Shown: positions 48,753 through 62,489 of the stretch, in pieces
How the letters are laid out: each line of letters begins with the position of its first letter
How positions within the stretch are numbered: position 1 is the stretch's first letter
Position numbers and translations under genes: made by a program
Origin: an uncultured Bacilli bacterium
GTDB taxonomy: Bacteria > Bacillota_I > Bacilli_A > RF39 > UBA660
DNA length: 64,000 bases
Direction of reading: 5' to 3'
Assembly (NCBI GenBank): GCA_934119965.1
Contig: CAKOTA010000003.1
Span: 24,488-88,487 of the forward strand
The notes under the pieces: generated by a model
The model's input: only the letters and a program-made list of their open reading frames with translations
What the model was told of the DNA's origin: nothing
Databases searched by the model: none

Positions 48753-49658
48753 TTATAATTTTTCTATTTCTTCTTTTGTTAATCCAGTTGCTTTAGATAT
48801 AGTATCAATATCTGTACCAATATTTTTAAAATTTCTTGCTATTTCTATACTTTTATTTACAGATCCTTGTTCAATTCCTTGTTTAAGACCTTGCTTAATA
48901 CCGCTTTGTTTTGCTTCTTCTATTAATGTATTGTATTCTAGTTCTTCTCTTGATTTTTCAAAATATAATGCTACTACATCTTCATCACTTGAATATTTCA
49001 TTGTTTCATCCATTAATTTTGATTTTGTTTCTTTTCCCATCAAATCATCCCCTAAATATTTTCTAAATTCTTCTTCTGTTTTTGCTGTTAAAACTGTACA
49101 CCATCTTGCTAATTTATTATTGTATTCATTATAACAAATTTTTCTTCCTATTACCATATCTAAATTATCTATTTCAAATTTTTCACTTAATATTTTCCCT
49201 TCTTCATTTCTTAGATAATATTTATCTATTAATTTGTTATTTTGATTTTTTAAATCCACATTTAGATTGATTTGAATTGTTTTTTTTATTTTACTATAAT
49301 TATTATCTCCATATCCTAAACTTCTTGAATGAACATTACAAGCATATACTATATTTCTTTCCTTTTTTCCATCTGAATGTTTATTATTTAATTCTATATT
49401 TATTGTTTCATTTTCTAGTTCTAATAATAAATCTATTTGTTTATTTTTGGCTTTTTTACTTTCTAATTCTAGTTCTCTTGGTAATATTTTTAATCTTCCT
49501 TTTATATCATTAATATCCATATCAAAGTAGCAAGCTAAAAAGCTTTCTAAGATATCTATATTTTCTTTTTTAGTAAATATTGCTTCAAATACAAAATCAA
49601 AGTTTAATGGTATTATTTCTCCTTCTTTTAATTCAGTTTTTCTTATATCTTGTTTCAT
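48753..49658 (-). CDS. Rpn-family recombination-promoting nuclease / putative transposase (PD-(D/E)XK_2)
   Basis: 301 aa with the N-terminal block IPLNFDFVFEAIF...ILESFL and IDLLLELENETINIELN, typical of the family. Confidence 0.6.
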   Translation of the reverse strand: MKQDIRKTELKEGEIIPLNFDFVFEAIFTKKENIDILESFLACYFDMDINDIKGRLKILPRELELESKKAKNKQIDLLLELENETINIELNNKHSDGKKERNIVYACNVHSRSLGYGDNNYSKIKKTIQINLNVDLKNQNNKLIDKYYLRNEEGKILSEKFEIDNLDMVIGRKICYNEYNNKLARWCTVLTAKTEEEFRKYLGDDLMGKETKSKLMDETMKYSSDEDVVALYFEKSREELEYNTLIEEAKQSGIKQGLKQGIEQGSVNKSIEIARNFKNIGTDIDTISKATGLTKEEIEKL

Positions 49659-49837: not shown

Positions 49838-50848
49838 TTATTTATCAAACAACATCCAAGCATTTGGAATCCATCTTTCTCCGGTAACACTTACAGCACA
49901 TGGCTTATTAACAATATTGCCTTTTTCAACTAAACTTGAAGAGGCACCACCATCTAAATTAGCAGCGTTATAAGCCTTATATTTTACTAATAAGTCTGTC
50001 ATTTCAACCATACCAATTCCTAAACTATATCCGGGTTGTCTTCCATCAATAACAAAGAATAGTACTATTCCATCTTTTCTTTGAGCAATTACAGTTCTAG
50101 AAGCAAGTCCCCAGCCTCCATTACCTTTTACCATAGCTCTTTTACCATTTACTATTAAGAAAGGTCCAAAATCTACTGCATCTACCATACCTTTTCTAAT
50201 AGCTTCATCAGGAGAATCTTTAGTTAAAACTAATACATGGTCTTTATTAAAACCAATTAATCCTCCACCCCAACCAGTGTCAACACCTTGGTAAAGAATA
50301 CTACCATTTGATATTACTGTTCCAGTTGGAATACCACCACTACCGACACCGCCAGCATCAGCAAATCCACCAGCATTAACAGAAACTAGTGAATTGTGAT
50401 ATTTAGACATTTCTTGTAAAAATTCACCTTGTTCTCCTAAGTATCTAGTACTTACTAAGTCTATTTTTGATGGGTCATAAATTACTACCATATATCCTAC
50501 ATATGTTGATCCCGTAATTTGAACAATTTTATACAAATCATTATCGCCTTTTTTTAATACTTGTTCTTCATATTCAGAATCATATTTATCAGTTTCTTTC
50601 AAATCTTGAAATTTTATTTCATTACTGTTTGTATTTTCGTTTACTTCTTCTATATAGTTTTTATTTGTGACTTTTGCAATCGTTTTTTCACTATATAAAA
50701 TTCTTGCTAAATATTTATGATCTTTAGTTGTCATTGCTGTTGTTATAAGTAATTCTCTGAAATAACTTATTGGTCCATATGCAAAGAACAAAAATATTAC
50801 TGCTAATACATCTAAAATTAATAATGTCTTAAATCCTTTATTTTTCAT
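49838..50848 (-). CDS. Phosphodiester glycosidase family (DUF2233/NAGPA-like) protein, membrane anchored
   Basis: An N-terminal TM segment, Gly-rich beta-sandwich motifs and NLDGGASSSL. Confidence 0.55.
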   Translation of the reverse strand: MKNKGFKTLLILDVLAVIFLFFAYGPISYFRELLITTAMTTKDHKYLARILYSEKTIAKVTNKNYIEEVNENTNSNEIKFQDLKETDKYDSEYEEQVLKKGDNDLYKIVQITGSTYVGYMVVIYDPSKIDLVSTRYLGEQGEFLQEMSKYHNSLVSVNAGGFADAGGVGSGGIPTGTVISNGSILYQGVDTGWGGGLIGFNKDHVLVLTKDSPDEAIRKGMVDAVDFGPFLIVNGKRAMVKGNGGWGLASRTVIAQRKDGIVLFFVIDGRQPGYSLGIGMVEMTDLLVKYKAYNAANLDGGASSSLVEKGNIVNKPCAVSVTGERWIPNAWMLFDK

Positions 50849-50855
50849 ATTACAC

Positions 50856-53621
50856 CTATTCTACCACAAATGGATCATTTATTGTTCCAACTCCGCCAAG
50901 TACTTTAATATCTTTTGTTAAATATACTGAAGGATAAATATCTAATTTTGCTGTTTTTTCACTAGCATATAGCATACCATTTTCATTTAAAGATAATACT
51001 TGTTCATCTCTTTTAGAGTTTAAGATATAAGAATTAACAAATGAATTTTCATATACATTTAATAATCCTACTTTAAATGCCCCTTCTTTTTGTTTTATTT
51101 CTTCATAATTATTGTCATATTCTCCAACATACCATTTACCATCAATAATGTATTTTTTATCTAAACTATTATAGAAATTATTATTTAAATATCTTGCTAC
51201 TGAATTATATTCTCTTACATTAAATTCACTGCTAGTATATGAATATGGCATTTTTTTACAAGTATCATTTTCTTTTAAACATTCATTCAATACAACTTTT
51301 ACATATTCATCGGTTTTGTCAACAATTTTCCATAAATGTCCGCTATAAGTAAGATATTTTCCTGTAGCTACACCATATGAACTATCGATTACATATGGGT
51401 CTTCTTTTGTTCCTGTACCACTATATCCTACATCTTTTTTTAGAACTATTGATGGTCTTACTCCTAAGCTATAATCAATACTATTAGAGTTTACACCACC
51501 TTCTTTGAATACATACCATACTGATTTGTCATCTTTTTTATTAATTGTCCACCAGTATTTATTTATATTTAGGTAACCATTATTAGCCCCTGATTTTATG
51601 TATTCATCATATGTTAATAAACCAATGTTTGATTCGATTTTTGTTTTACAAACATCTGAATTTTTATCAATTTTATCAATGCACCAAGTTGATTTTTGAA
51701 GATATTTTTTTGTTTTTGTCAATTTTGGATAGAATTCATTTTCTAGATATGATTTTATATAAGAATCATTATATTCTAAATCATCACCCCAGTTAATTGC
51801 TGTAACAACATCATCAGTTACTAATTTAACTGTTCGATCATTATTAACTTTTACTATCCTCCATAAATATCCTGAATATGAAACATAATTATTTTTAATA
51901 TTTCCCTTTAATGTATAGTCATTATCTTTCATATAAAATTCATCTACTTCATTATCTTCTAATACTTTATGAGCTAAACTATTGTCAGTATAATTTGCTT
52001 TTGGATGTTCAATTTTATAATAATGAACTAATCTATATGTATATATACCAACTAATGATAATAAGAATAATAATGATATTATCATAAAAATATTTTTAAT
52101 TTTATCGTGTTTTATTAATGATACTCCTGTCATTTCTTTTGGTTTTTCCAGGTTCATTAATTCTAACATTGTTGGTACTACATCACATAATCTACCATTA
52201 TTTAATTTTACTTTTTCATCAGTTACTATACAAGGAACTAAGTTTGTTGTATGGCTTGTTACAGGATTATGATCTTTATCCCACATAACATCACAATTAC
52301 CGTGATCGGCTATTATAACTAATGTCCCTCCTATTTCCTCTACTTTTTTATATATTTTTCCAACACATTCATCTAATACTTCAACAGCTTTAACGGCAGC
52401 ATCATAATTACCAGTATGTCCTACCATATCTCCGTTTGCTAAATTCATAATTGTAACATCATAATTATTTACTTCTTCTAAAAATTTATCAGTTACTTCA
52501 TATGCACTCATTTCTGGTTTCAAGTCATATGTTGCAACTTTAGGTGATGGTATAAGTATTTTTTTCATATCGTCGTATTCTACTTCTTTACCACCATCAA
52601 AGAAAAATGTTACATGAGCAAATTTTTCAGTTTCGGCTATTCTTAATTGACTTAAATTATGATTATGTAAATAGTCAACTAGAATGTTTTTCATATCATT
52701 ATCGTGGAAAGCATATGGTGCTTTTACGCTGTTAACTACTGGCATCATTGTTACAACACTTAAGTTTTTGAATTTTTTTAATTCCAATCCTTTTTCGTTG
52801 GCTGCAGTTTGATATTCAAGAGGGTTAGTAATACAAGTTAACATTTCTCTTAAACGATCTTTTCTAAAATTAAATACTATTAATCCATCATTATCTTCTA
52901 ATGTTATTTTGTTTATTATACCTGGTTCTATAAATTCATCAGTAATGTTTTTTTCATAATTACTGTTTATTAATTCCTCTACACTACTATATATTTTGCC
53001 TTCACCGTAAACTATGGTATCATATGATTTTTTTAGTCGATCAAAATTATTGTCACGATCCATTCCATAGTATCTACCACCTATAGTAGCGATTTCACCA
53101 ATTCCTGATTCTTTAATTTTATCTTCTAATTGTTTTATATATTTTAAGGCACTTTTTGGTTCAACATCTCTTCCATCTGTAAATATATGAAAGTAAAGTT
53201 TTTCTATTTTATTTTGCTTTGCCATATCTATTAGCGCAAACAAATGATTAATACTAGAATGTATTCCTCCATCTGATAATAATCCCATTATGTGCAATTT
53301 TGAATTATTTTGTTTAACACGGTTTATGGTTTTTAGTAGTTCTTCATTTTTAAATATTGTTTTATCTTTTATTGATTTATTTATAAATTCCAATGGTTGA
53401 TATGTTAATCTACCTGATCCAATATTCATATGTCCTACTTCACTAGTTCCCATTTGTCCTTTAGGAAGTCCAACAGCTTCGCCACTAGCTTTTAATAATG
53501 AATGTGGATATTTCTTCATAAGTGAGTCTAAATTAGGTTTTTTAGCATTTTTAAAAGCATTTCCGTCTTTATTTTTTCTTATTCCACATCCATCTAATAT
53601 ACATAGTACCATTTTTTTCAT
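50856..53621 (-). CDS. gpmI: 2,3-bisphosphoglycerate-independent phosphoglycerate mutase fused to a TM helix and a ~390-aa extracytoplasmic two-module domain
   Basis: The first ~504 aa are canonical iPGM (LDGCG, SEVGHMNIGSGR, ADHGN) ending ...TGVSLIK (K codon at 52110-52112). The frame then continues HDKIKNIFMIISLLFLLSLVGIYTYRLV (TM at about 52026-52091) and runs to 50856. The start was set at ATG 53621 after AGGTGAT. Confidence 0.75.
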   Translation of the reverse strand: MKKMVLCILDGCGIRKNKDGNAFKNAKKPNLDSLMKKYPHSLLKASGEAVGLPKGQMGTSEVGHMNIGSGRLTYQPLEFINKSIKDKTIFKNEELLKTINRVKQNNSKLHIMGLLSDGGIHSSINHLFALIDMAKQNKIEKLYFHIFTDGRDVEPKSALKYIKQLEDKIKESGIGEIATIGGRYYGMDRDNNFDRLKKSYDTIVYGEGKIYSSVEELINSNYEKNITDEFIEPGIINKITLEDNDGLIVFNFRKDRLREMLTCITNPLEYQTAANEKGLELKKFKNLSVVTMMPVVNSVKAPYAFHDNDMKNILVDYLHNHNLSQLRIAETEKFAHVTFFFDGGKEVEYDDMKKILIPSPKVATYDLKPEMSAYEVTDKFLEEVNNYDVTIMNLANGDMVGHTGNYDAAVKAVEVLDECVGKIYKKVEEIGGTLVIIADHGNCDVMWDKDHNPVTSHTTNLVPCIVTDEKVKLNNGRLCDVVPTMLELMNLEKPKEMTGVSLIKHDKIKNIFMIISLLFLLSLVGIYTYRLVHYYKIEHPKANYTDNSLAHKVLEDNEVDEFYMKDNDYTLKGNIKNNYVSYSGYLWRIVKVNNDRTVKLVTDDVVTAINWGDDLEYNDSYIKSYLENEFYPKLTKTKKYLQKSTWCIDKIDKNSDVCKTKIESNIGLLTYDEYIKSGANNGYLNINKYWWTINKKDDKSVWYVFKEGGVNSNSIDYSLGVRPSIVLKKDVGYSGTGTKEDPYVIDSSYGVATGKYLTYSGHLWKIVDKTDEYVKVVLNECLKENDTCKKMPYSYTSSEFNVREYNSVARYLNNNFYNSLDKKYIIDGKWYVGEYDNNYEEIKQKEGAFKVGLLNVYENSFVNSYILNSKRDEQVLSLNENGMLYASEKTAKLDIYPSVYLTKDIKVLGGVGTINDPFVVE

Positions 53622-53677
53622 ATCATCACCTATTATATATTCTATCACAATTTAATATAGAGATAAAGAAAAAATCA

Positions 53678-53881
53678 CTATCGTGATTTAGTTTTTTCTC
53701 CACTTTTACTTAGTTGTTGTTCTAACCCATTTATAGCGTATAAAGCATAGGCTTTTGCCTTTTCTAAGTCTTCACTACTTTTAGCGTTATCTATCATTGT
53801 TTTCACTTGGTTTAATAGTCCAATTGTATTATCAACTGATCCATTTAAACTATATTTTTCTAGTGCTAAATTATTATCCAT
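53678..53881 (-). CDS. Hypothetical small helical protein
   Basis: A 67-aa ORF with GGAGGG upstream, between spo0A and gpmI. Confidence 0.4.
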   Translation of the reverse strand: MDNNLALEKYSLNGSVDNTIGLLNQVKTMIDNAKSSEDLEKAKAYALYAINGLEQQLSKSGEKTKSR

Positions 53882-53929: not shown

Positions 53930-54697
53930 TTACATTCCTATTTTACTTCCTTCTAGTCTTAATTTATCAGCTATTGTAACTATAAATTCTGAATTAGTTG
54001 GTTTTGCTTTGTCAATATCAACACTATGTCCAAATATTTCTTCCATTAAGTCCCAATTACCACGATTCCAACTTACTTCAATTGCGTGTCTGATTGCTCT
54101 TTCAACTCTTGAAGTTGTTGTTTCAAATTTGTTTGCTAACTCAGGATATAGTTCTTTAGTTATACCTCCTATTTTTTGAGGTTTATTATATATTATACTT
54201 ATTCCTTCTCTTATATATTGATAACCTTTTATATGAGATGGAATACCTAATTCGTGAAGAATTTTAGTGATTGATATTTGTAAATTATTGTGTCTAAAAT
54301 CTATATTTTTGCTTGTTTTATTTTCATCAGATGTAATTTCTATAATTCTCTTTTCTAAATCAACTAATTCGAATGGTTTAAGCAAAAAATAACTTACACC
54401 ATATTCTGACACTTTTCTTATTACATCACTAGCGTTGTAACTAGTTGATACAATTACTTTTTTATCAATATTTCTAGCTTTCATTTCTTCTAATACATAC
54501 ATTCCATCTTTATTTGGCATTATTAAGTCTAAAACTATTACATCATACATATCTTGTTTTTCTTCAATTAATTTTATTCCTTCTAAACCATCATGCGCTT
54601 CTAAAACAATACTAACATTACTACTTTTAAAATACTCCTTAATCATTTCAATTAAACTTATATTATCATCAACCATAAGTACACGTATTTTTTCCAT
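53930..54697 (-). CDS. spo0A: Sporulation master regulator Spo0A
   Basis: A receiver domain (VLMVDDN...DLIMPNKDG) and a Spo0A-specific C-terminal domain ([39 protein letters not shown]). Confidence 0.9.
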
Positions 54698-54819
54698 ATT
54701 CATTCCCTCTCTATTAGTACTACTTCAACAATAAAATTATACAACATATTACTACAATTATAAAGAATTTAATTTATCTAGTTTTGACGGATTTTGTCGT
54801 TTTTAGTAAAAAAAAGTCG

Positions 54820-55494
54820 TTAGCTATTAACAACTTCTATAATTTTTAAAAACTCTACTACATCAGTTGATGCTTTACCTATTAAAACACCATCTGTTAC
54901 CTTTATTATTTCAGAAATATTACTACTATTAACACTTCCACCATATAAAACTTTTGTGTTTACTATTTCTTTTATTTTACTTATATTGTTTTCTATTTCA
55001 GAAACAGTTGGCACAATATTTGTTCCTATTGCCCATATTGGTTCATAGGCTATTATGACTTCTTCATTTACATCTTTCAAGCATTCATTTATTTGTTTTT
55101 TTAATACTTCAATTGTTTTATTATTTTGTTTTTCTTCTAATGTTTCTCCGATACATAGGATTACTTTTAAATTATTTTTTAAAGCTTCCTTTATTTTATG
55201 ATTAACTACTATATTTGTTTCAATAAAGTTTGTTCTTCTTTCAGAGTGTCCAATTATTGCATATGAAATTCCTAGACTTTTAGCTTGTTTAGCAGTTATT
55301 TCACCTGTACAAGTTTTATCATTTAAATAGATATTTTGAATTCCTACTTCAAACTTTTTATTTAAAAAATAAGGTATAAAAATATTTGATGGACAAATTA
55401 CAACATTTTCTATTTTGTCTATTTGTTTCAAATATATAGCAGTATCATGAGCATCCATATAATTTTTAAGATTACCTACTATTAATTTTTCCAT
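54820..55494 (-). CDS. tpiA: Triosephosphate isomerase
   Basis: 224 aa with GNLKNY, IIGHSERR and AYEPIWAIGT. Its start overlaps the upstream GT4 gene by 13 nt. Confidence 0.85.
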   Translation of the reverse strand: MEKLIVGNLKNYMDAHDTAIYLKQIDKIENVVICPSNIFIPYFLNKKFEVGIQNIYLNDKTCTGEITAKQAKSLGISYAIIGHSERRTNFIETNIVVNHKIKEALKNNLKVILCIGETLEEKQNNKTIEVLKKQINECLKDVNEEVIIAYEPIWAIGTNIVPTVSEIENNISKIKEIVNTKVLYGGSVNSSNISEIIKVTDGVLIGKASTDVVEFLKIIEVVNS

Positions 55495-56696
55495 TTTATT
55501 ACCCCTTTTAGTTTATCAATGAACGATTCATTTTTAGAACCATTTATTGTTATATTATAAACATCTAATATTTTTTCAGCATAGTATTTTAAAGAATGTG
55601 ATTCAGCTGTTACTCTAGCTTGTTTGCACATTACTTTATATTGTTCTTTATTTTTATACAAATTTTCTATTGCGTTTACATATTCTTTATCATTCTTAAA
55701 TACTTTACCATTTAAACCATCAATGACAGCATCTTTAAACGACTCATCATCAGCACATACAACTGGAATAGATGCAGCCATTGCTTCTATAACGGTTAAT
55801 CCTTGAGTTTCAGTTACTGATGCGGTTACAAATATATTAGAAATTGCATAATAGCTTGCAATCTCATAGTGAGGCACAGCTCCAGTAAATATTACTTTAT
55901 CTTCTAAATCTAATTTTTTTACCATTTCTTTAAATTTTTCTAAGTCTGGTCCATTACCTACTATCATAAGTTTGCATTTTTTATTTAATTTGGTATGATT
56001 ATTAATCAAAAATTCGATATTTTTTTCTTCAGCTAATCTTCCAACATAAGTTATTATAAAGTCATCTTTTTTAAATTTTAATTCTTTTTTTAATAATTCT
56101 AATTCTTTTTTATTTTGATTTTCAATATAAAATTTTTCAACATCTATACCAGTTGGTACTATATGAATTGTTTTATTTACTTTATATTTTTCTTTAAATA
56201 AATCATAGGTCTTTTTGCTTGGAACAATTAATTCTTTAGCTGTTTTGTCACAGTAAAATTTGGTAAAATATTCGGCTAATTTTTTACTAGATTTATCAAA
56301 ATAACCTTTGGTAATATAATGAACATAATCTTCATACATTGTATGGTATGTATGAACTAATGGTATATTAAATTGTTTAGCTATTATTCTAGCGAATGTT
56401 CCAACTCCAAATTCAGTATGTGAATGGATTATATCTAAGTTCCATTTTTTAATTTTATTGATTGCTCTTAGTGGATAAATTCCTGTTAACCTATAATCAT
56501 ATATTCCTGTAGGGATTCCTGGAATTCTTATTATATGATCATCATCTTCATATTTGTATGTTAGGTTTTCGGAATTAACTGTTACGATATATACTTCATG
56601 GCCTTTTGCTTTCAAAGCTTTTTCTAAACTTACAATACTTGTTGATACTCCATTTATATATGGAGGATATGTATCGGTAAATATTCCTATTCTCAT
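55482..56696 (-). CDS. GT4-family glycosyltransferase, diacylglycerol glucosyltransferase-like (glycolipid synthase)
   Basis: It begins MRIGIFTDTYPPYINGVSTSI and has the EX7E region ETQGLTVIEAMAASIPVV. Confidence 0.7.
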   Translation of the reverse strand: MRIGIFTDTYPPYINGVSTSIVSLEKALKAKGHEVYIVTVNSENLTYKYEDDDHIIRIPGIPTGIYDYRLTGIYPLRAINKIKKWNLDIIHSHTEFGVGTFARIIAKQFNIPLVHTYHTMYEDYVHYITKGYFDKSSKKLAEYFTKFYCDKTAKELIVPSKKTYDLFKEKYKVNKTIHIVPTGIDVEKFYIENQNKKELELLKKELKFKKDDFIITYVGRLAEEKNIEFLINNHTKLNKKCKLMIVGNGPDLEKFKEMVKKLDLEDKVIFTGAVPHYEIASYYAISNIFVTASVTETQGLTVIEAMAASIPVVCADDESFKDAVIDGLNGKVFKNDKEYVNAIENLYKNKEQYKVMCKQARVTAESHSLKYYAEKILDVYNITINGSKNESFIDKLKGVIKWKN

Positions 56697-57691
56697 TTTT
56701 TAGCCCCTTTTCCGATACTTAGTGTAATTGCTCCTAATATCATTGCGAAATAATAAGTGATAAAGCGCCATAATAACATTATAGCTGTTACTATTTTAGT
56801 ACTATCAAAGTTTGAGAAAAAGGCTACAAATCCATATTCTAGGCCTCCTGTACCACCTGGTATCGGAACAAATGATCCAATTAGCATAACATAGGCTGAT
56901 GTTGCTATTGCTATTAATGGATTAATGTATATACCAACTCCCATAAATAATACAAATGGAATTAGATATAAAGATGTTAATGAAACAAATTGTAAAAATA
57001 TTAGTCCCAAAAATTGGGGTTTGTTTTCAAATATTTTTTTAGCGCCTTCATTAAATTCTTTTATATATTTATCTAAATCTTCTAATGTTTTATCTTTATT
57101 TTTAAATATTTTGAATTTATTTAATATTTTAACTATAAAAGAAAGAATTAATTTACTTATTTTTTTAGTAAATGATAGTAAGAATAATACTACTATTACT
57201 AAAAAATTAATAATAAATCCTAATGTAACTAGTTTTTCCAATAAATTGTTTTTAGGAAACAGGTTCAAAAAATAGTTACTTATAATTGCAATTGTTCCAA
57301 GTAATACTAGTGCAATTTGATATATTATAAATGATTGAACTGACACATTTGTAGCATCTGTTAATTTTATATTGTTCTTTTTTAATGAGTATATTTCGTA
57401 TGGTTGTCCACCTGTTGAAAATGGTGTTATAGCGTGAAAAAAGTTTGTTTCTACAACCATTCTAAATGCATTTCTAAAGCGATATTTTCCGTACTTTTTA
57501 GTTACAATCCACATAGTTATGGCTTTAAAAAACCAATAACTAAATAATAGGAAAAATCCTAACAATAAAAATTTCTTGTCAATATTTAAGATTGTATCTA
57601 TTACAGTAGTATAGTCATCTTTTAGTGAAAAATATAAAACCAATATAGTCACAATTATCAATAAAATTGCGTTTATTATTTTCTTTTTCAT
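56693..57691 (-). CDS. UPF0104 / lysyl-PG-synthase-TM-like flippase-type membrane protein
   Basis: 332 aa with about 8 TM segments and a PIPGGTGGLEYGF motif. ATGA overlaps with the GT4 gene. Confidence 0.6.
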   Translation of the reverse strand: MKKKIINAILLIIVTILVLYFSLKDDYTTVIDTILNIDKKFLLLGFFLLFSYWFFKAITMWIVTKKYGKYRFRNAFRMVVETNFFHAITPFSTGGQPYEIYSLKKNNIKLTDATNVSVQSFIIYQIALVLLGTIAIISNYFLNLFPKNNLLEKLVTLGFIINFLVIVVLFLLSFTKKISKLILSFIVKILNKFKIFKNKDKTLEDLDKYIKEFNEGAKKIFENKPQFLGLIFLQFVSLTSLYLIPFVLFMGVGIYINPLIAIATSAYVMLIGSFVPIPGGTGGLEYGFVAFFSNFDSTKIVTAIMLLWRFITYYFAMILGAITLSIGKGAKK

Positions 57692-57692
57692 T

Positions 57693-58865
57693 TTATCCCT
57701 CGATTACTTCTATCCCTGGTAATTTTTTTCCTTCTAATAATTCTAATGAAGCTCCTCCGCCTGTTGATATATGAGTCATATAGTCTTTATAACCCAAATT
57801 TACAATTGCTGATGCTGTATCGCCTCCACCAATTATTTTTGTTGCGTCTAAATTTTTTAGAATTTCGCAAATTCCAATTGTTCCTTTGTTGAACTCTTCT
57901 TGTTCAAACATTCCAACTGGTCCATTCCAAATAATTGTTTTGCTGTTTTCTAAATATGTTTTAAATAATTTTACTGTATTATATCCAATGTCTAATCCCA
58001 TTTCATTATCTTTTATTTCGTTTATGAAACAAGTTCTTCCTGATTCATTTATATCTATAGCATTAACACTATCAATTGGCAATATTATTTTATCTTTGTA
58101 TTTTTCTAACATTTCTTTACAAAATTCAATTGATTCTTCATCTAATAAGGACTTTCCAATATTAATTCCAGTTGCTTTTAAGAATGTATAAGCCATTCCA
58201 CCACCTATTAAAATATAGTCAGCTACATTTACTAGATTTTTAATTACTCCGATTTTATCTTTTACTTTCGCACCACCTAATATTACTGTTAATGGTCTAT
58301 CTGGATTTGTTAAAACTTTATTAAAGGCATTTAATTCTTTTTCGATTAAAAAACCTATACCACTTGGTAAATTTGAAGCAATTCCTACATTTGATGCATG
58401 AGCTCTATGACTTGTTCCAAATGCATCATTTATATAAATATCTCCTAATGATGCCCAATATTTTCCTAATTCTTGGTCATTACTTGATTCTTTTTTTCCG
58501 TCTAAATCTTCATATCTAGTATTTTGAATTAATAATACTTCACCATTATTCATATTATTAATTCTATCCTCTAATATTTTTCCCCTTGTATGGTTAGAAA
58601 ATAGAACTTTTTTATTTAATAATTCACTTAAACGAATAGCTACAGGATATAGATTATTTTTTTCTAAATCACTTTCTTCTTTTATTCTTCCTAAATGTGA
58701 TAATAGTATTACTTTTGCACCTTTATCTATTGCATAGTTAATTGTTTCTAAACTTTCTTTTATTCGGGTATCATCTGTAATTACTCCATCTTTCATAGGA
58801 ACATTAAAATCGACTCTTATGATTATTTTTTTACTATTTAATTCAAAGTCTCTGATTGTTTTCAT
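57693..58865 (-). CDS. pgk: Phosphoglycerate kinase
   Basis: 390 aa with RVDFNVP, SHLGRP-like and GGGDTA motifs. Confidence 0.95.
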   Translation of the reverse strand: MKTIRDFELNSKKIIIRVDFNVPMKDGVITDDTRIKESLETINYAIDKGAKVILLSHLGRIKEESDLEKNNLYPVAIRLSELLNKKVLFSNHTRGKILEDRINNMNNGEVLLIQNTRYEDLDGKKESSNDQELGKYWASLGDIYINDAFGTSHRAHASNVGIASNLPSGIGFLIEKELNAFNKVLTNPDRPLTVILGGAKVKDKIGVIKNLVNVADYILIGGGMAYTFLKATGINIGKSLLDEESIEFCKEMLEKYKDKIILPIDSVNAIDINESGRTCFINEIKDNEMGLDIGYNTVKLFKTYLENSKTIIWNGPVGMFEQEEFNKGTIGICEILKNLDATKIIGGGDTASAIVNLGYKDYMTHISTGGGASLELLEGKKLPGIEVIEG

Positions 58866-59227
58866 TTTGATTCCACCATTTCGAATTGTAATATATTTTC
58901 TTCATTTTTATAAACTTTAATTTGAATTTTCTTATTTTCTTCATCTTTTACTTTTTTATTATTATTTGGATTAATTAAATCACTTTTTAAATATCCTGAT
59001 TTTAATAATTCATCTATTGTAACATAAGTTGCATCGGTTGTTATAACAATTCCCTCTTCTTGAACATATGCCTCTGTTGCAATATAAACATCATTTAAAA
59101 AATTTTCTTCAGCGTTTGTATCACCTTGTTTAATCATATTAGTTATGTACGGCACTGAAATAAGTAATATAATTGCTGTTATTGTAAATACTGCTAACAA
59201 CTCTATCATTGTAAATCCTTTTTTCAT
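58862..59227 (-). CDS. Prepilin-type (type IV pilin/pseudopilin-like) protein, small
   Basis: It has a class III signal (MKKGFTMIELLAVFTITAIILL). The start was set at ATG 59227 after GGTGA. Its stop overlaps the pgk start (ATGA). Confidence 0.7.
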   Translation of the reverse strand: MKKGFTMIELLAVFTITAIILLISVPYITNMIKQGDTNAEENFLNDVYIATEAYVQEEGIVITTDATYVTIDELLKSGYLKSDLINPNNNKKVKDEENKKIQIKVYKNEENILQFEMVESK

Positions 59228-59304
59228 TATTATCACCATATATAATTTTAACAATTTTTAGTTATTTTAGCAAGGTATATATAAAAGAAAAAGACTATTA
59301 GTCT

Positions 59305-60948
59305 TTAATCTATTACATATGGATTTTGTAATGTACCATTACCTGATGTAACAGTAGTAGCAATATTTACCACTATTACTGGTCTTATTGCTAATTCATC
59401 AGAGATATTATTATCACTAACATACCCTGAGGCTTTAAGATTATCAGACAAAATTGTGGTATTATACCCTGTTATATAATATGCATTTGTTTCATTTGTA
59501 GTTTTATTAAGCACCCAATAATCTTTTGTTTCTGATATTGACGCACTTTGACTAGATAACATTTCACCTATTCTAATTAATCCTACTTTTGCTTTTATTT
59601 GACCATCTCTATTGTTTAATATGTCAATATATTTTTCTCCACCTATAAATCCTGTTCCTTGATACCAATCAGAATTTACAATTTTTTTTGAATTACTTAA
59701 CCAATCCAATACTTCATTATTCAAAAATTTTCCTATTCCTGATGAGACATCAAAACCAGTACTTGTTCCATACATAGTTGATGAATCATAGTAACCATCA
59801 TATATTAATTTTGTTCCCGTTGAATTTTTACTTACTACTCTATATATTTTATCATTCAAAGTTACATATTCACCACTAGTTGCGATTTTATTCAATTTTC
59901 CTGTTTGATCATTTATATCTTGACTCAATATATATGGATTAGCAATTGAGCCGTCACCACTATTAATAACTACATAGGGACTTATATTTATAACCGGTCT
60001 CACTCCTGCATAGGTATTAGCTCCCATATGGTTATATTTATTTTGAAGAATACTATTAGGAATAGTAGCATTATATGGTGTTAAAGTCCAAAAATGATCA
60101 TTAGTCCCTAAATAATATGTTGAATTTGTTATTGTTTCACTTAATGTAAATTCATCTGCACTTATCAATCCTACTTTTGCAGTTATTAATTTTCCACCCG
60201 TACAATCAGTTCTATTATATGGTCCAACGCTCTGATTAATACACCAATTACTATCTTGAATAATAGCATTTTTTTCACTACTTAGGTTACCTAGAAAATA
60301 ATCATTTAACCAATCTTTTAAATATCCTTCACTATCATAATTTAGTGTTGCAGATTCTTTTGCCCAAGCAACTGTTCCAACACTTTCTTGTGTAATTAAT
60401 CTAATTGTTCCATCTTCATTTAACCCCATTATTCGCCATAAAAAACCATTATACCAAACATAGTTATTTGTTTGAATTCCTTTTAAATATGTTCCATTCA
60501 TGTAATTATAATTTCCATAGGAATTGTTGTCAAGTAATTCTTGAGTAACTTTATTTATGTAAAAAGGTTCAAAATGTTTTTCTAATAGTTTATATTTATA
60601 TTCATTGTCATCATTCATAAATAATTCTACTGTATAATCTTCTTCTTTTACATTTTTTTTATTTTTAGGATCTGTAATTGTAGCTTTTAAATATCCAGAT
60701 TCTAATAATTCCGAAAAATATACATAAACTTTGCTTGAATTATAGTTTAAGGCTGGATATTTATTGATATTTTTTTGAACATATGCTTCAGTTGATAAAA
60801 ATATATCACTCAAAAATCTTTCATATTCATTTTCTCTCGCTTTTTTATAAACATTTGTTATTTCTGGAAAGACAATTAGAAAAATAATTGTCAAAACTGA
60901 TAAAACTACCAACATTTCTACTAAAGTGAAGCCCTTTTTATTCTTCAT
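59305..60948 (-). CDS. Prepilin-type protein with a large C-terminal two-module domain
   Basis: It begins MKNKKGFTLVEMLVVLSVLTIIFL. The pilin-like ~125 aa are paralogous to 58862..59227. Two modules follow, ending GVRPVINIS...SGDGSIANPYIL and AIRPVIVVN...SGNGTLQNPYVID. Confidence 0.7.
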   Translation of the reverse strand: MKNKKGFTLVEMLVVLSVLTIIFLIVFPEITNVYKKARENEYERFLSDIFLSTEAYVQKNINKYPALNYNSSKVYVYFSELLESGYLKATITDPKNKKNVKEEDYTVELFMNDDNEYKYKLLEKHFEPFYINKVTQELLDNNSYGNYNYMNGTYLKGIQTNNYVWYNGFLWRIMGLNEDGTIRLITQESVGTVAWAKESATLNYDSEGYLKDWLNDYFLGNLSSEKNAIIQDSNWCINQSVGPYNRTDCTGGKLITAKVGLISADEFTLSETITNSTYYLGTNDHFWTLTPYNATIPNSILQNKYNHMGANTYAGVRPVINISPYVVINSGDGSIANPYILSQDINDQTGKLNKIATSGEYVTLNDKIYRVVSKNSTGTKLIYDGYYDSSTMYGTSTGFDVSSGIGKFLNNEVLDWLSNSKKIVNSDWYQGTGFIGGEKYIDILNNRDGQIKAKVGLIRIGEMLSSQSASISETKDYWVLNKTTNETNAYYITGYNTTILSDNLKASGYVSDNNISDELAIRPVIVVNIATTVTSGNGTLQNPYVID

Positions 60949-61088: not shown

Positions 61089-62489
61089 ATGAACAAAAGT
61101 ATTCGTACTATATTTATGGTTTTGTTTTTACTTGTTCTAATTATTTGTAGTTTTCTTATTTCAAAAAAGAATCCAGATATTAAGAAAGATGAATCAAGTA
61201 TAAATTTTAAAACTTCTTATAATAAAAATAATACTGTTGATATAGTTGTTGAAACTAATGACAAAGACATCCAATATTCATTCGATAATGGAAAAACATG
61301 GCAAAAAGAAAATTCTTTTGTTGCTACTAAAAATGGAACTTATAATATCAAAATTAAGGATAGTAATGGTATTATAAAATCAACAAAATGTATTGTAAAT
61401 AAAATAGATGATGAAGGACCTGAATTATCTATAAATTTACCTCAGGAAATAACAGTTGGTGAAGAAATAAATTTAGCTGATTATGCAAAAATAACAAATA
61501 ATGATAAATTATCTGGAAATATTGTTATAACACCTAATAAAATAGATACTTCTACAAAGAACGACTATTATATTACTTATTCAGCCACTGATATTTATGG
61601 AAATACATCAACTAAAGAGGTAAAAATTAGAGTCGTAGATAAAGTAAATAATTCTGTCACAACAATATTTGGTAGCACTCTAAAACCAGCTGATGATAAA
61701 ACTTATTATAGATATAGAACTAAAAAAACTGTTACATATGATTGTAACGAATATGATTGTAGTTATTTGGATGTTTCTACTAAAGAAGTCGCTAATGTAA
61801 AATATAATAATCCAGATTGTCCTAATGGTGGAGCATATATAAATAATCCATGTCCTATAGGTAGTAGTTGTACAGCAAATATGGTATCAAGTAATAATTC
61901 AAAAGGAAATATTTGTTATAGCCGTAGTTACATATATGGTAAAAATTCATCAACAAATACAGGAAAAGAAAAAACTGAATGTACTGATGGTGAGATTAAA
62001 ATAGGTGATTATTGTCATAAAATTATGGCGATTGGAACTTATCCTGAAGGATGTACTGATAGTTCATGTGTTGAATTTCCTAGTGGTCCTTGTAATGGTG
62101 ATGATGGTCCTGAAATTAATACACCTTGTCCAATTGGAAAACAATGTGTAACAGTAATGACTAATACTTATAAGAGATATCAAAATTATTGTTATAATGT
62201 TTCGTATATTTATAATTATTCTTCGAATAATGCTTATGATAAATATGGTAATAAAGTTGTTTGTGATAGTGACGAAATTAAGATAGGTAACTATTGCCAC
62301 AAAATTATTGAAAAAGGTTCCTACTATTGTAATTCTAATGAAGAACTAAAAGATGGTTACTGTTATTCAAAAATTATAAAATCTTGTTCTAATAGTTGTA
62401 AAAAAGATGTTTGGAGTGAGTGGAGTGATTGGTCTACAATTCCAGTTAGCCCATCTCTTAATGTTGATGTTGAAACGAAATCCAATTAA
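61089..62489 (+). CDS. Signal-anchored Cys-rich surface protein with an Ig-like domain
   Basis: An N-terminal TM segment and an Ig-like segment (DDEGPELS...ITYSATDIYGNTSTKEVKIRVVD). There are two ~95-aa Cys-rich modules and a C-terminal WSEWSDWS. Confidence 0.55.
   Translation: MNKSIRTIFMVLFLLVLIICSFLISKKNPDIKKDESSINFKTSYNKNNTVDIVVETNDKDIQYSFDNGKTWQKENSFVATKNGTYNIKIKDSNGIIKSTKCIVNKIDDEGPELSINLPQEITVGEEINLADYAKITNNDKLSGNIVITPNKIDTSTKNDYYITYSATDIYGNTSTKEVKIRVVDKVNNSVTTIFGSTLKPADDKTYYRYRTKKTVTYDCNEYDCSYLDVSTKEVANVKYNNPDCPNGGAYINNPCPIGSSCTANMVSSNNSKGNICYSRSYIYGKNSSTNTGKEKTECTDGEIKIGDYCHKIMAIGTYPEGCTDSSCVEFPSGPCNGDDGPEINTPCPIGKQCVTVMTNTYKRYQNYCYNVSYIYNYSSNNAYDKYGNKVVCDSDEIKIGNYCHKIIEKGSYYCNSNEELKDGYCYSKIIKSCSNSCKKDVWSEWSDWSTIPVSPSLNVDVETKSN

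Follow-up and report, generated by a model that had tools for sequence, protein, structure and literature searches.

Phosphoglycerate mutases of the iPGM (GpmI) family are usually soluble proteins of about 510 aa which end shortly after the motif ...EMTGxSLI, the canonical example being the Geobacillus (Bacillus) stearothermophilus enzyme (1EJJ/1O98). The DUF6273 domain has been described as the N-terminal domain of the IgA peptidase of Thomasclavelia ramosa (9qa6; PMC12402451), and as a domain resembling the C-type lectin fold which is the target of diversity-generating retroelements (DGRs) in phage receptor-binding proteins (PMC10743442). We describe here a gene in which the two families are joined. 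It lies on the minus strand of a 64,000-nucleotide stretch of DNA, hereafter the window, taken from contig CAKOTA010000003.1 of an uncultured Bacilli bacterium (GCA_934119965.1), and it encodes an iPGM that continues in frame into a single transmembrane (TM) helix and two DUF6273-type modules, which are predicted to be extracytoplasmic. As far as can be judged from the sequences, the fusion is real, conserved and undescribed, and has a likely origin of an ordinary kind, from neighbouring genes of one operon. Loci in other genomes and database proteins are referred to below by L and P numbers, respectively.

The gene appears in the list of open reading frames as a single frame, 50856..53648 (-), of 930 aa when counted from an upstream GTG. 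The ATG at 53621 was taken as the true start because it is preceded by a Shine-Dalgarno sequence, AGGTGA (53626..53631, 4 nt 5' of the ATG), and because the 100%-identical database protein P0121 is likewise 921 aa long; residues are numbered here according to the 921-aa form. Residues 1-504 (52110..53621, minus strand, as are all the segments that follow) constitute the complete iPGM, predicted to be cytoplasmic and delimited by Pfam, TIGR01307 and the alignment to 1EJJ. This part ends at K504 (codon 52110-52112), exactly where the first-pass annotation had placed its end. There is no stop at the junction. The frame runs on, as had been read from the translation, through the short, basic linker HDKIKN (residues 505-510, 52092..52109, defined by the sequence, the orthologue alignment and the L003 junction) into the single TM helix IFMIISLLFLLSLVGIYTYRLV (residues 511-532, 52026..52091), a predicted signal-anchor of N-in/C-out orientation according to hydropathy, charge and the AlphaFold2 (AF2) model. 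Approximately 390 residues then follow, 389 by exact count, before the TAG stop at 50856-50858. They comprise a juxtamembrane stalk (residues 533-559, 51945..52025), modelled by AF2 as a helix to residue 538 and then as a segment of lower confidence; a first DUF6273 module (residues ~560-745, 51387..51944), which ends GVRPSIVL...GTGTKEDPYVI and was assigned by Pfam PF19789, AF2 and Foldseek; and a second, DUF6273-like module (residues ~746-921, 50859..51386), which ends IYPSVYL...GVGTINDPFVVE and was assigned through its BLASTP match to the first and a high-confidence model.

The enzyme half gave strong matches to both Pfam domains of the family, Metalloenzyme (PF01676, E=1.8e-80) and iPGM_N (PF06415, E=2e-75). 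The NCBIfam equivalog TIGR01307 was matched at 655.6 bits against a cut-off of 330.65, with residues 2-503 covering profile positions 1-504 of 504. In the alignment to the B. stearothermophilus structure 1EJJ, residues 2-503 correspond to positions 4-509 of a chain of 511 (E=1e-152); the enzyme thus extends to about two residues from the canonical C-terminus, and the earlier view that the iPGM part is complete is borne out by this alignment together with the TIGR01307 match. The catalytic Ser, the residues of the two-metal site and the substrate-binding His, Arg and Lys residues of the transferase domain are all present in the 1EJJ alignment. Thirteen positions, D10, S60, H121, R151, D152, R183, R189, K333, D398, H402, D439, H440 and H457, are invariant in the 58 aligned fused proteins. 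Their counterparts in 1EJJ are Asp12, Ser62, His123, Arg153, Asp154, Arg185, Arg191, Lys336, Asp403, His407, Asp444, His445 and His462; on this correspondence they make up the phosphoserine nucleophile together with the residues of the two-metal site and those that bind substrate, as known from the 1EJJ literature. Each sequence criterion tested thus places the enzyme half in the GpmI family, except that the usual soluble format of about 510 aa is replaced by a protein of 921 aa. The fused gene also holds the gpmI slot of the local glycolytic cluster (gap ... pgk ... tpi ... gpmI), and motif scans of the 64-kb window, a small part of the genome, found no second iPGM, no dPGM and no enolase motif. 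The iPGM half is very probably enzymatically active, as the glycolytic gpmI product of this cluster, and it would face the cytoplasm.

A Kyte-Doolittle scan of the fused protein found one hydrophobic segment, with a peak of 2.31 at residues 508-526, and no other segment at or above 1.6; in particular, no N-terminal hydrophobic or signal-like segment was present. Averaged over the 58 sequences, the net charge is +3.4 in the 15 residues before the helix versus +0.7 after it, which by the positive-inside rule predicts the N-in/C-out orientation. A single hydrophobic helix acting as a membrane tether, as proposed in the first-pass annotation, is therefore what the hydropathy and the charge bias both suggest. 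The short basic linker and the hydrophobic helix follow the iPGM end in frame in all 58 of the aligned fused proteins. The linker is rich in K and R, has a median length of 9 residues and measures 6-21 residues in 56 of the 58. Homologues that occur as stand-alone proteins start with a short K/R-rich tail followed by the same helix, in the manner of type II signal-anchors. The AF2 model of the full-length protein (mean pLDDT 88.6) consists of the iPGM, one continuous helix spanning residues 507-538, and two beta-rich modules; the extension modelled alone reached a pLDDT of 92.8 and a pTM of 0.86.

Within the extension, module 1 is detected by the Pfam DUF6273 profile (PF19789) at 28.2 bits, the cut-off being 23.5. 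Module 2 is not detected by that profile, and is assigned through its homology to module 1 (BLASTP E=3e-13, 29% identity), so that the two related modules noticed in the translation are indeed homologous to one another. The extension had also been aligned by eye with the C-terminal modules of a prepilin-type protein encoded elsewhere in the window (59305..60948, minus strand; Pfam N_methyl and DUF6273). That likeness proved to be significant: BLASTP gives E=2e-26 at 25% identity, colinear across both modules, with DUF6273 in both proteins, and the prepilin-type protein is a paralogous carrier of two DUF6273-like modules. By profile and homology, the extension belongs to DUF6273. It is not regarded as a pilin because the fused protein has no N_methyl match and no prepilin motif (G-F-T-L-x-E), both of which were found only in the frames 59305..60948 and 58862..59254; its helix is internal and lacks the prepilin cleavage and methylation motif. 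An extracytoplasmic location of module 1 is consistent with a pair of cysteines, C647 and C658, conserved in approximately 77% of orthologues, and the same modules are borne by the prepilin protein, which is of an exported type.

When the AF2 model of the extension was compared with the Protein Data Bank using Foldseek, the sole significant match was the T. ramosa IgA peptidase structure 9qa6 (E=3.3e-6). Matches to C-type-lectin-like domains (CTLDs) were weak, and included the C-terminal domain of Legionella Lcl (8q4e, probability 0.75) and the CTLDs of mannose receptors; the C-type-lectin-like label used for the modules is taken mainly from the published description (PMC10743442). The viral structure library BFVD gave 20 matches at E<=1e-3, the best at 5.5e-11. 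Most of these are DUF6273 proteins of gut phages, and some are annotated as receptor-binding or tail proteins. The modules may bind a glycan or a sugar-phosphate polymer. The idea that the gene encodes a DGR variable protein was tried and rejected: between 48000 and 63000 there is no repeat of 40 nt or more that pairs the gene with a template-like copy, and the C-terminal motif GxGTxxxP(Y/F) is conserved, not variable, among orthologues.

A search with the full-length protein found the same fusion in at least 57 clusters formed at 90% identity, whose members measure 880-960 aa, with 99% query cover and 42-100% identity. These clusters are drawn from ENA, Logan, JGI, NCBI and MGnify assemblies; they carry the Pfam domains iPGM_N and Metalloenzyme, most of them also DUF6273, and no protein name is attached to the fused orthologues in the source databases. 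An apparent uniqueness of the fusion, suggested by a word-index search with the extension only, in which no iPGM proteins were listed, was overturned by the full-length query. The extension-only search had missed even the 100%-identical P0121, and its silence does not amount to absence from the database. Among the best 150 matches in a collection of 1.84 billion representatives at 50% identity, the only relevant entries were the full-length fused protein P0145, the partial P0272 and P0001, in which the enzyme is reduced to a relic; globally, therefore, the fused proteins constitute one lineage-restricted family.

Species-representative genomes were scanned with a five-sequence alignment, which gave ten loci whose taxonomic breadth is that of a sample. 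The fusion is intact at four loci, L002, L003, L005 and L007. L002 (CAKPKR010000001.1, a metagenome-assembled genome from the Hadza gut) is another assembly of the window's species and is 99% identical, with a V-to-A change in the helix. L003 is 88% identical; its junction DNA differs by synonymous changes and KHDKIKNIFMI is kept, a signature of purifying selection on the in-frame linker. In L005 and L007 the extension is 39-40% identical to that of the window. At a further locus, L006 491-3244 (UMGS900, URDT01000024.1), the fused gene is broken in the module region into frames of 646 aa and 261 aa, which points to an assembly error or a pseudogene. The proposal made at first pass, of a membrane-tethered glycolytic enzyme carrying the surface domain of a pilin-like protein, is upheld by this recurrence, by the invariant catalytic residues, by the charge bias about the helix and by the homology to the prepilin-type protein. 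The same annotation knew of no described counterpart. That stands for the literature, in which full-text searches turned up no account of an iPGM anchored by a TM helix or fused to DUF6273, but not for the databases, where the architecture is common within one lineage.

Sister lineages show how the fusion may have come about. In L024 (GCA_050259235.1) and L025 the order GT4-tpi-spo0A-...-gpmI is followed by a gene for a TM helix with two DUF6273 modules (TM-2xDUF6273) and then by a gene of the NAGPA family, ie the synteny of the window with two genes (499 aa and 451-453 aa) in place of one. The gpmI stop codon, TGA, is located inside the ribosome-binding site of the next gene (TGAGG), whose ATG lies 9-11 nt further on. 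In L012 the gpmI and TM-2xDUF6273 genes overlap by 14 nt. The coupled pair of L024 and L025 is likely to represent the pre-fusion state; loss of the stop, the Shine-Dalgarno sequence and the start in such a pair would yield the fused gene. Two separate genes in relatives had been named at first pass as an observation that would count against the fusion. They were found only in the sister lineages L012, L024 and L025, where we read the arrangement as the unfused ancestral state and not as evidence against the fusion in the window.

The closest relatives of the extension are proteins of 581-584 aa (P0001, P0002 and P0005-P0007) in which the N-terminal ~150 aa are a decayed iPGM. This relic, which matches iPGM residues 362-503 (BLASTP E=2e-14), has lost the transferase domain and the metal-binding motifs by deletion. 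Relics were found at L001 8001-9746, L004 5509-7263 and L014-L019, and an identical relic protein was present on seven independent contigs. Among lineages the relics are 37-58% identical versus 65-76% for the remainder of the protein, with almost no indels. By these figures the constraint on the relic is relaxed, not absent, and the relic is a candidate pseudoenzyme domain. In L021 and L022, which share the BacA...GTPase synteny of the relic loci, the relic is wholly gone; the coding sequence opens immediately ahead of the TM helix, after a spacer of only 68 nt (L021 3990-4058). The more distant loci L008-L011 have the TM-2xDUF6273 and NAGPA genes with no gpmI nearby. Stand-alone gpmI genes from the clade adjacent to that of the window sit in unrelated contexts (L013, L020 and L026). 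It may be hypothesised that the relic lineages underwent duplication and then subfunctionalisation of gpmI; no overlap could be shown between the relic lineage and a stand-alone gpmI in the same sample.

Downstream of the fused gene is a gene for a membrane-anchored phosphodiester glycosidase of the NAGPA/DUF2233 family (49838..50848, minus strand; Pfam PF09992, E=7.9e-38). It begins 8 nt past the fused gene, and its Shine-Dalgarno sequence, AGGTG, overlaps the TAG stop of the latter. A NAGPA gene stands directly 3' of the homologous DUF6273 gene in 11 of 11 loci, and also in L012, L014-L019 and L021-L025. Since this adjacency holds with or without an attached iPGM, the pair TM-2xDUF6273 and NAGPA is a conserved envelope cassette of two genes. 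It is open to duplication, as in L011 (4032-8247), where the stand-alone TM-2xDUF6273 gene has NAGPA genes on both sides. The human NAGPA homologue hydrolyses a GlcNAc-alpha-1-phosphate linkage (PMC13474241), and literature searches gave nothing specific on the function of the bacterial proteins. Tentatively, the modules might bind an envelope polymer containing sugar phosphate on which the NAGPA-family glycosidase acts. Directly 3' of the NAGPA gene is a transposase-like gene of the PD-(D/E)XK nuclease family (Rpn-type; 48753-49658, minus strand), which is also found in L002.

Upstream, between 54820 and 60948 on the minus strand, genes of glycolysis and genes of the envelope follow one another in mixed order, neighbours overlapping stop-to-start. 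The order is a pilin-like gene (547 aa), a second pilin-like gene (130 aa), pgk, a flippase-like gene, an Mgs-like GT4 glycosyltransferase gene and tpi. The overlaps are at 58862-58865 (pilin stop and pgk start), 57691-57693 (flippase-like), 56693-56696 (GT4) and 55482-55494 (tpi). The region looks like one long operon mixing glycolysis with surface and glycolipid functions. Between tpi and gpmI lies spo0A (53930-54703, minus strand; Response_reg and Spo0A_C), also in this position in L002, L005 and L024; the order tpi-spo0A-...-gpmI is kept in distant relatives, both fused and unfused, and is an unusual home for the master regulator of sporulation. A 67-aa frame with its own GGAGG and no family match (53678-53881, minus strand) lies between spo0A and gpmI, where L024 has a DAGK gene. 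On the plus strand, a divergent frame between gap and the pilin genes (61089-62489) specifies a protein that is rich in Cys, probably secreted and equipped with an Ig-like surface domain; it contains an internal duplication, in which CPIG..C...CY..SYIY...EIKIG.YCHKI occurs twice.

The explanation that we consider probable is that of a bitopic protein, with an active iPGM in the cytoplasm and exported, lectin-like modules acting together with NAGPA, the two halves being independent of one another. One polypeptide would be made from the fused gene. Its iPGM would fold in the cytoplasm and serve glycolysis, held at the inner face of the membrane by the six-residue basic linker; the helix at residues 511-532 would be the signal-anchor, and the two tandem DUF6273 modules would be exported to the cell surface, there to act at the envelope with the translationally coupled NAGPA product. 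The lineage concerned comprises uncultured, spore-forming gut Bacilli of very high AT content; in an ancestor of it gpmI and TM-2xDUF6273 would already have been adjacent and translationally coupled, and loss of the intervening stop, Shine-Dalgarno sequence and start would have fused them. Independence of the halves is probable in that related genomes contain, and have kept, either one without the other; the relic lineages, which have lost the metal-binding motifs and kept the extension, bear on the same point. The fusion would then be tolerated or mildly useful, for instance through fixed stoichiometry or co-expression, and probably is not a signalling device. Several observations weigh against this explanation. 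The fusion has outlasted divergence to approximately 42% identity, its linker is very short throughout, and a relic of the iPGM, 37-58% identical among several diverged lineages, is retained in them without frameshifts; taken together, these suggest that the cytoplasmic domain could matter to the membrane protein beyond catalysis. In a neighbour-joining tree of iPGM domains the fused proteins are interspersed among the unfused ones, and as the tree carries no support values we make no claim as to the number or direction of fusion and fission events. The scans for a second phosphoglycerate mutase gene covered 64 kb of the genome, and both the activity of the iPGM and the membrane topology of the fused protein are predictions.

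The fusion could stem from an error in sequencing or assembly, or from a stop codon lost recently in the window genome alone, much as the first-pass annotation had suggested in its alternative of a lost stop codon or a sequencing error. The junction is A/T-rich, its +1 frame shows TAATAA across ...TCATTAATAAAA..., the sister lineages do carry two separate genes, and the L006 relative has a broken frame. We nevertheless give this possibility virtually no credence, as the in-frame junction is identical in the independent L002 assembly and remains in frame, with synonymous changes, in the 88%-identical L003, and as full-length fusions were recovered by many projects over a wide range of identity, every aligned one with linker and helix in frame. 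Because the junction sequences diverge, a systematic homopolymer error is implausible. The gene might instead be fused at the DNA level only, giving two proteins by internal initiation near the helix or by proteolysis of the linker. An in-frame ATG at 52085 (M513) stands at the start of the helix, a basic linker could be a protease site, and the unfused relatives show that both products function separately. This ATG, however, has no Shine-Dalgarno sequence, as had been noted and as our reading of the sequence confirmed; the Met is kept in 7 of 58 orthologues, any Met nearby is found in 11 of 58, and the 58-orthologue alignment shows no cleavage motif conserved in the linker. Two separate products are thus quite improbable. 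It is very improbable that the enzyme has been repurposed for a non-glycolytic phosphotransfer on behalf of the envelope cassette, for example acting on a sugar phosphate or a glycerate-containing polymer precursor. The iPGMs do belong to the alkaline-phosphatase superfamily, as do the membrane enzymes LtaS and EptA, and the NAGPA partner acts on sugar-phosphodiesters, to judge from its homologue. Against this, the protein passes the iPGM equivalog model and not a superfamily model alone, the Arg, Lys and His residues that bind substrate in the transferase domain are all invariant, and the gene fills the gpmI position of a glycolytic cluster in a window with no further PGM motif.

The remaining alternative is that the link between the halves has itself been selected, either because the ectodomain, in a layout akin to that of PASTA kinases or anti-sigma factors, senses a glycan or wall cue and modulates the mutase, or because the tether places lower glycolysis at the membrane for envelope synthesis. 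Retention of the fusion across a broad clade speaks for such coupling, as does a linker so short and so conserved in length that it would press the phosphatase domain on to the membrane. The iPGM-derived relic that stays in frame in diverged lineages points the same way, and in the window the genes for glycolysis are interspersed with, and translationally coupled to, the pilin genes, the flippase-like gene and the Mgs-like GT4 gene. On the other hand, the ectodomain and NAGPA occur as a cassette without iPGM in L008-L011 and in L021 and L022, the ectodomain is a separate gene beside gpmI in L012, L024 and L025, and a single TM helix attached to a monomeric enzyme offers no obvious route of transduction. 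We therefore regard coupling as unlikely. In a more specific form, which appears quite doubtful, the protein would be a receptor-type enzyme: binding of a glycan from the cell wall, the host or the gut to the two lectin-like modules outside, or the envelope state set by NAGPA, would be passed through the helix and short linker to switch or sequester the mutase. Were this so, a carbohydrate signal from outside the cell would set glycolytic flux directly, the 3-phosphoglycerate pool of spore-formers could be subject to the same control, and the iPGM relics of the sister lineages would be pseudoenzyme scaffolds kept for signalling or assembly.

If the bitopic protein with independent halves is the correct explanation, a housekeeping enzyme of glycolysis would be an integral membrane protein with a lectin-like surface ectodomain, which is unusual; and GpmI normally takes the fused form throughout one lineage of uncultured Bacilli of the gut, represented in human, ruminant and other animal samples. 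Annotation pipelines would label such proteins plainly as phosphoglycerate mutase, and the envelope half would be overlooked, as would the enzyme origin of the relics. The family may be read as a natural series, from coupled neighbours to fusion, to a decayed pseudoenzyme relic and finally to loss, which should be useful for studying how gene fusions arise, persist and dissolve. It also points to the conserved cassette of TM-2xDUF6273 and a NAGPA-type glycosidase, which offers a handle on the physiological meaning of a membrane-tethered glycolytic enzyme.

Among known systems, the canonical soluble iPGM of G. stearothermophilus resembles the fused protein in its phosphatase and transferase domains, in its catalytic and metal-binding residues and in the position of the gene after tpi. 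It differs in being a soluble protein of about 510 aa, whereas the window protein adds 417 residues that make up the TM helix and the predicted extracytoplasmic domain. The stand-alone TM-2xDUF6273 proteins (P0008 and P0012; L008-L011, L024 and L025) share with the extension the K/R-rich tail, the helix, the juxtamembrane motif YR(L/F)(V/I)H(Y/F)Y and the same two modules, at 29-38% identity over their full length, and have the NAGPA gene directly downstream. They begin 10-60 residues ahead of the helix and have no enzyme domain, where the window protein has an iPGM. With the T. ramosa IgA peptidase (PMC12402451) and the phage receptor-binding, DGR-target 'tentaclins' (PMC10743442), the likeness lies in the PF19789 domain and the fold match, and in the use of extracellular binding modules by Firmicutes and their phages. 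The window protein differs in that its two modules stand in tandem after a metabolic enzyme and are held by a plain signal-anchor, and it has neither the peptidase nor the tail-fibre context of the known DUF6273 carriers.

Two further groups of membrane proteins invite comparison. The PASTA Ser/Thr kinases (PknB/PrkC) have an N-terminal cytoplasmic catalytic domain, a single helix and repeated extracellular ligand-binding modules. The resemblance is one of layout only, with no homology, and the predicted cytoplasmic part of the window protein belongs to housekeeping metabolism and not to signalling. LtaS and EptA/MCR-1 are membrane-bound members of the alkaline-phosphatase superfamily, with N-terminal multi-pass anchors and the catalytic domain outside the cell; they have both the catalytic superfamily and the membrane anchoring in common with the window protein. 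Their topology is the opposite of the one proposed here, in which the catalytic domain is N-terminal, predicted to lie inside the cell and matched by the iPGM equivalog model.

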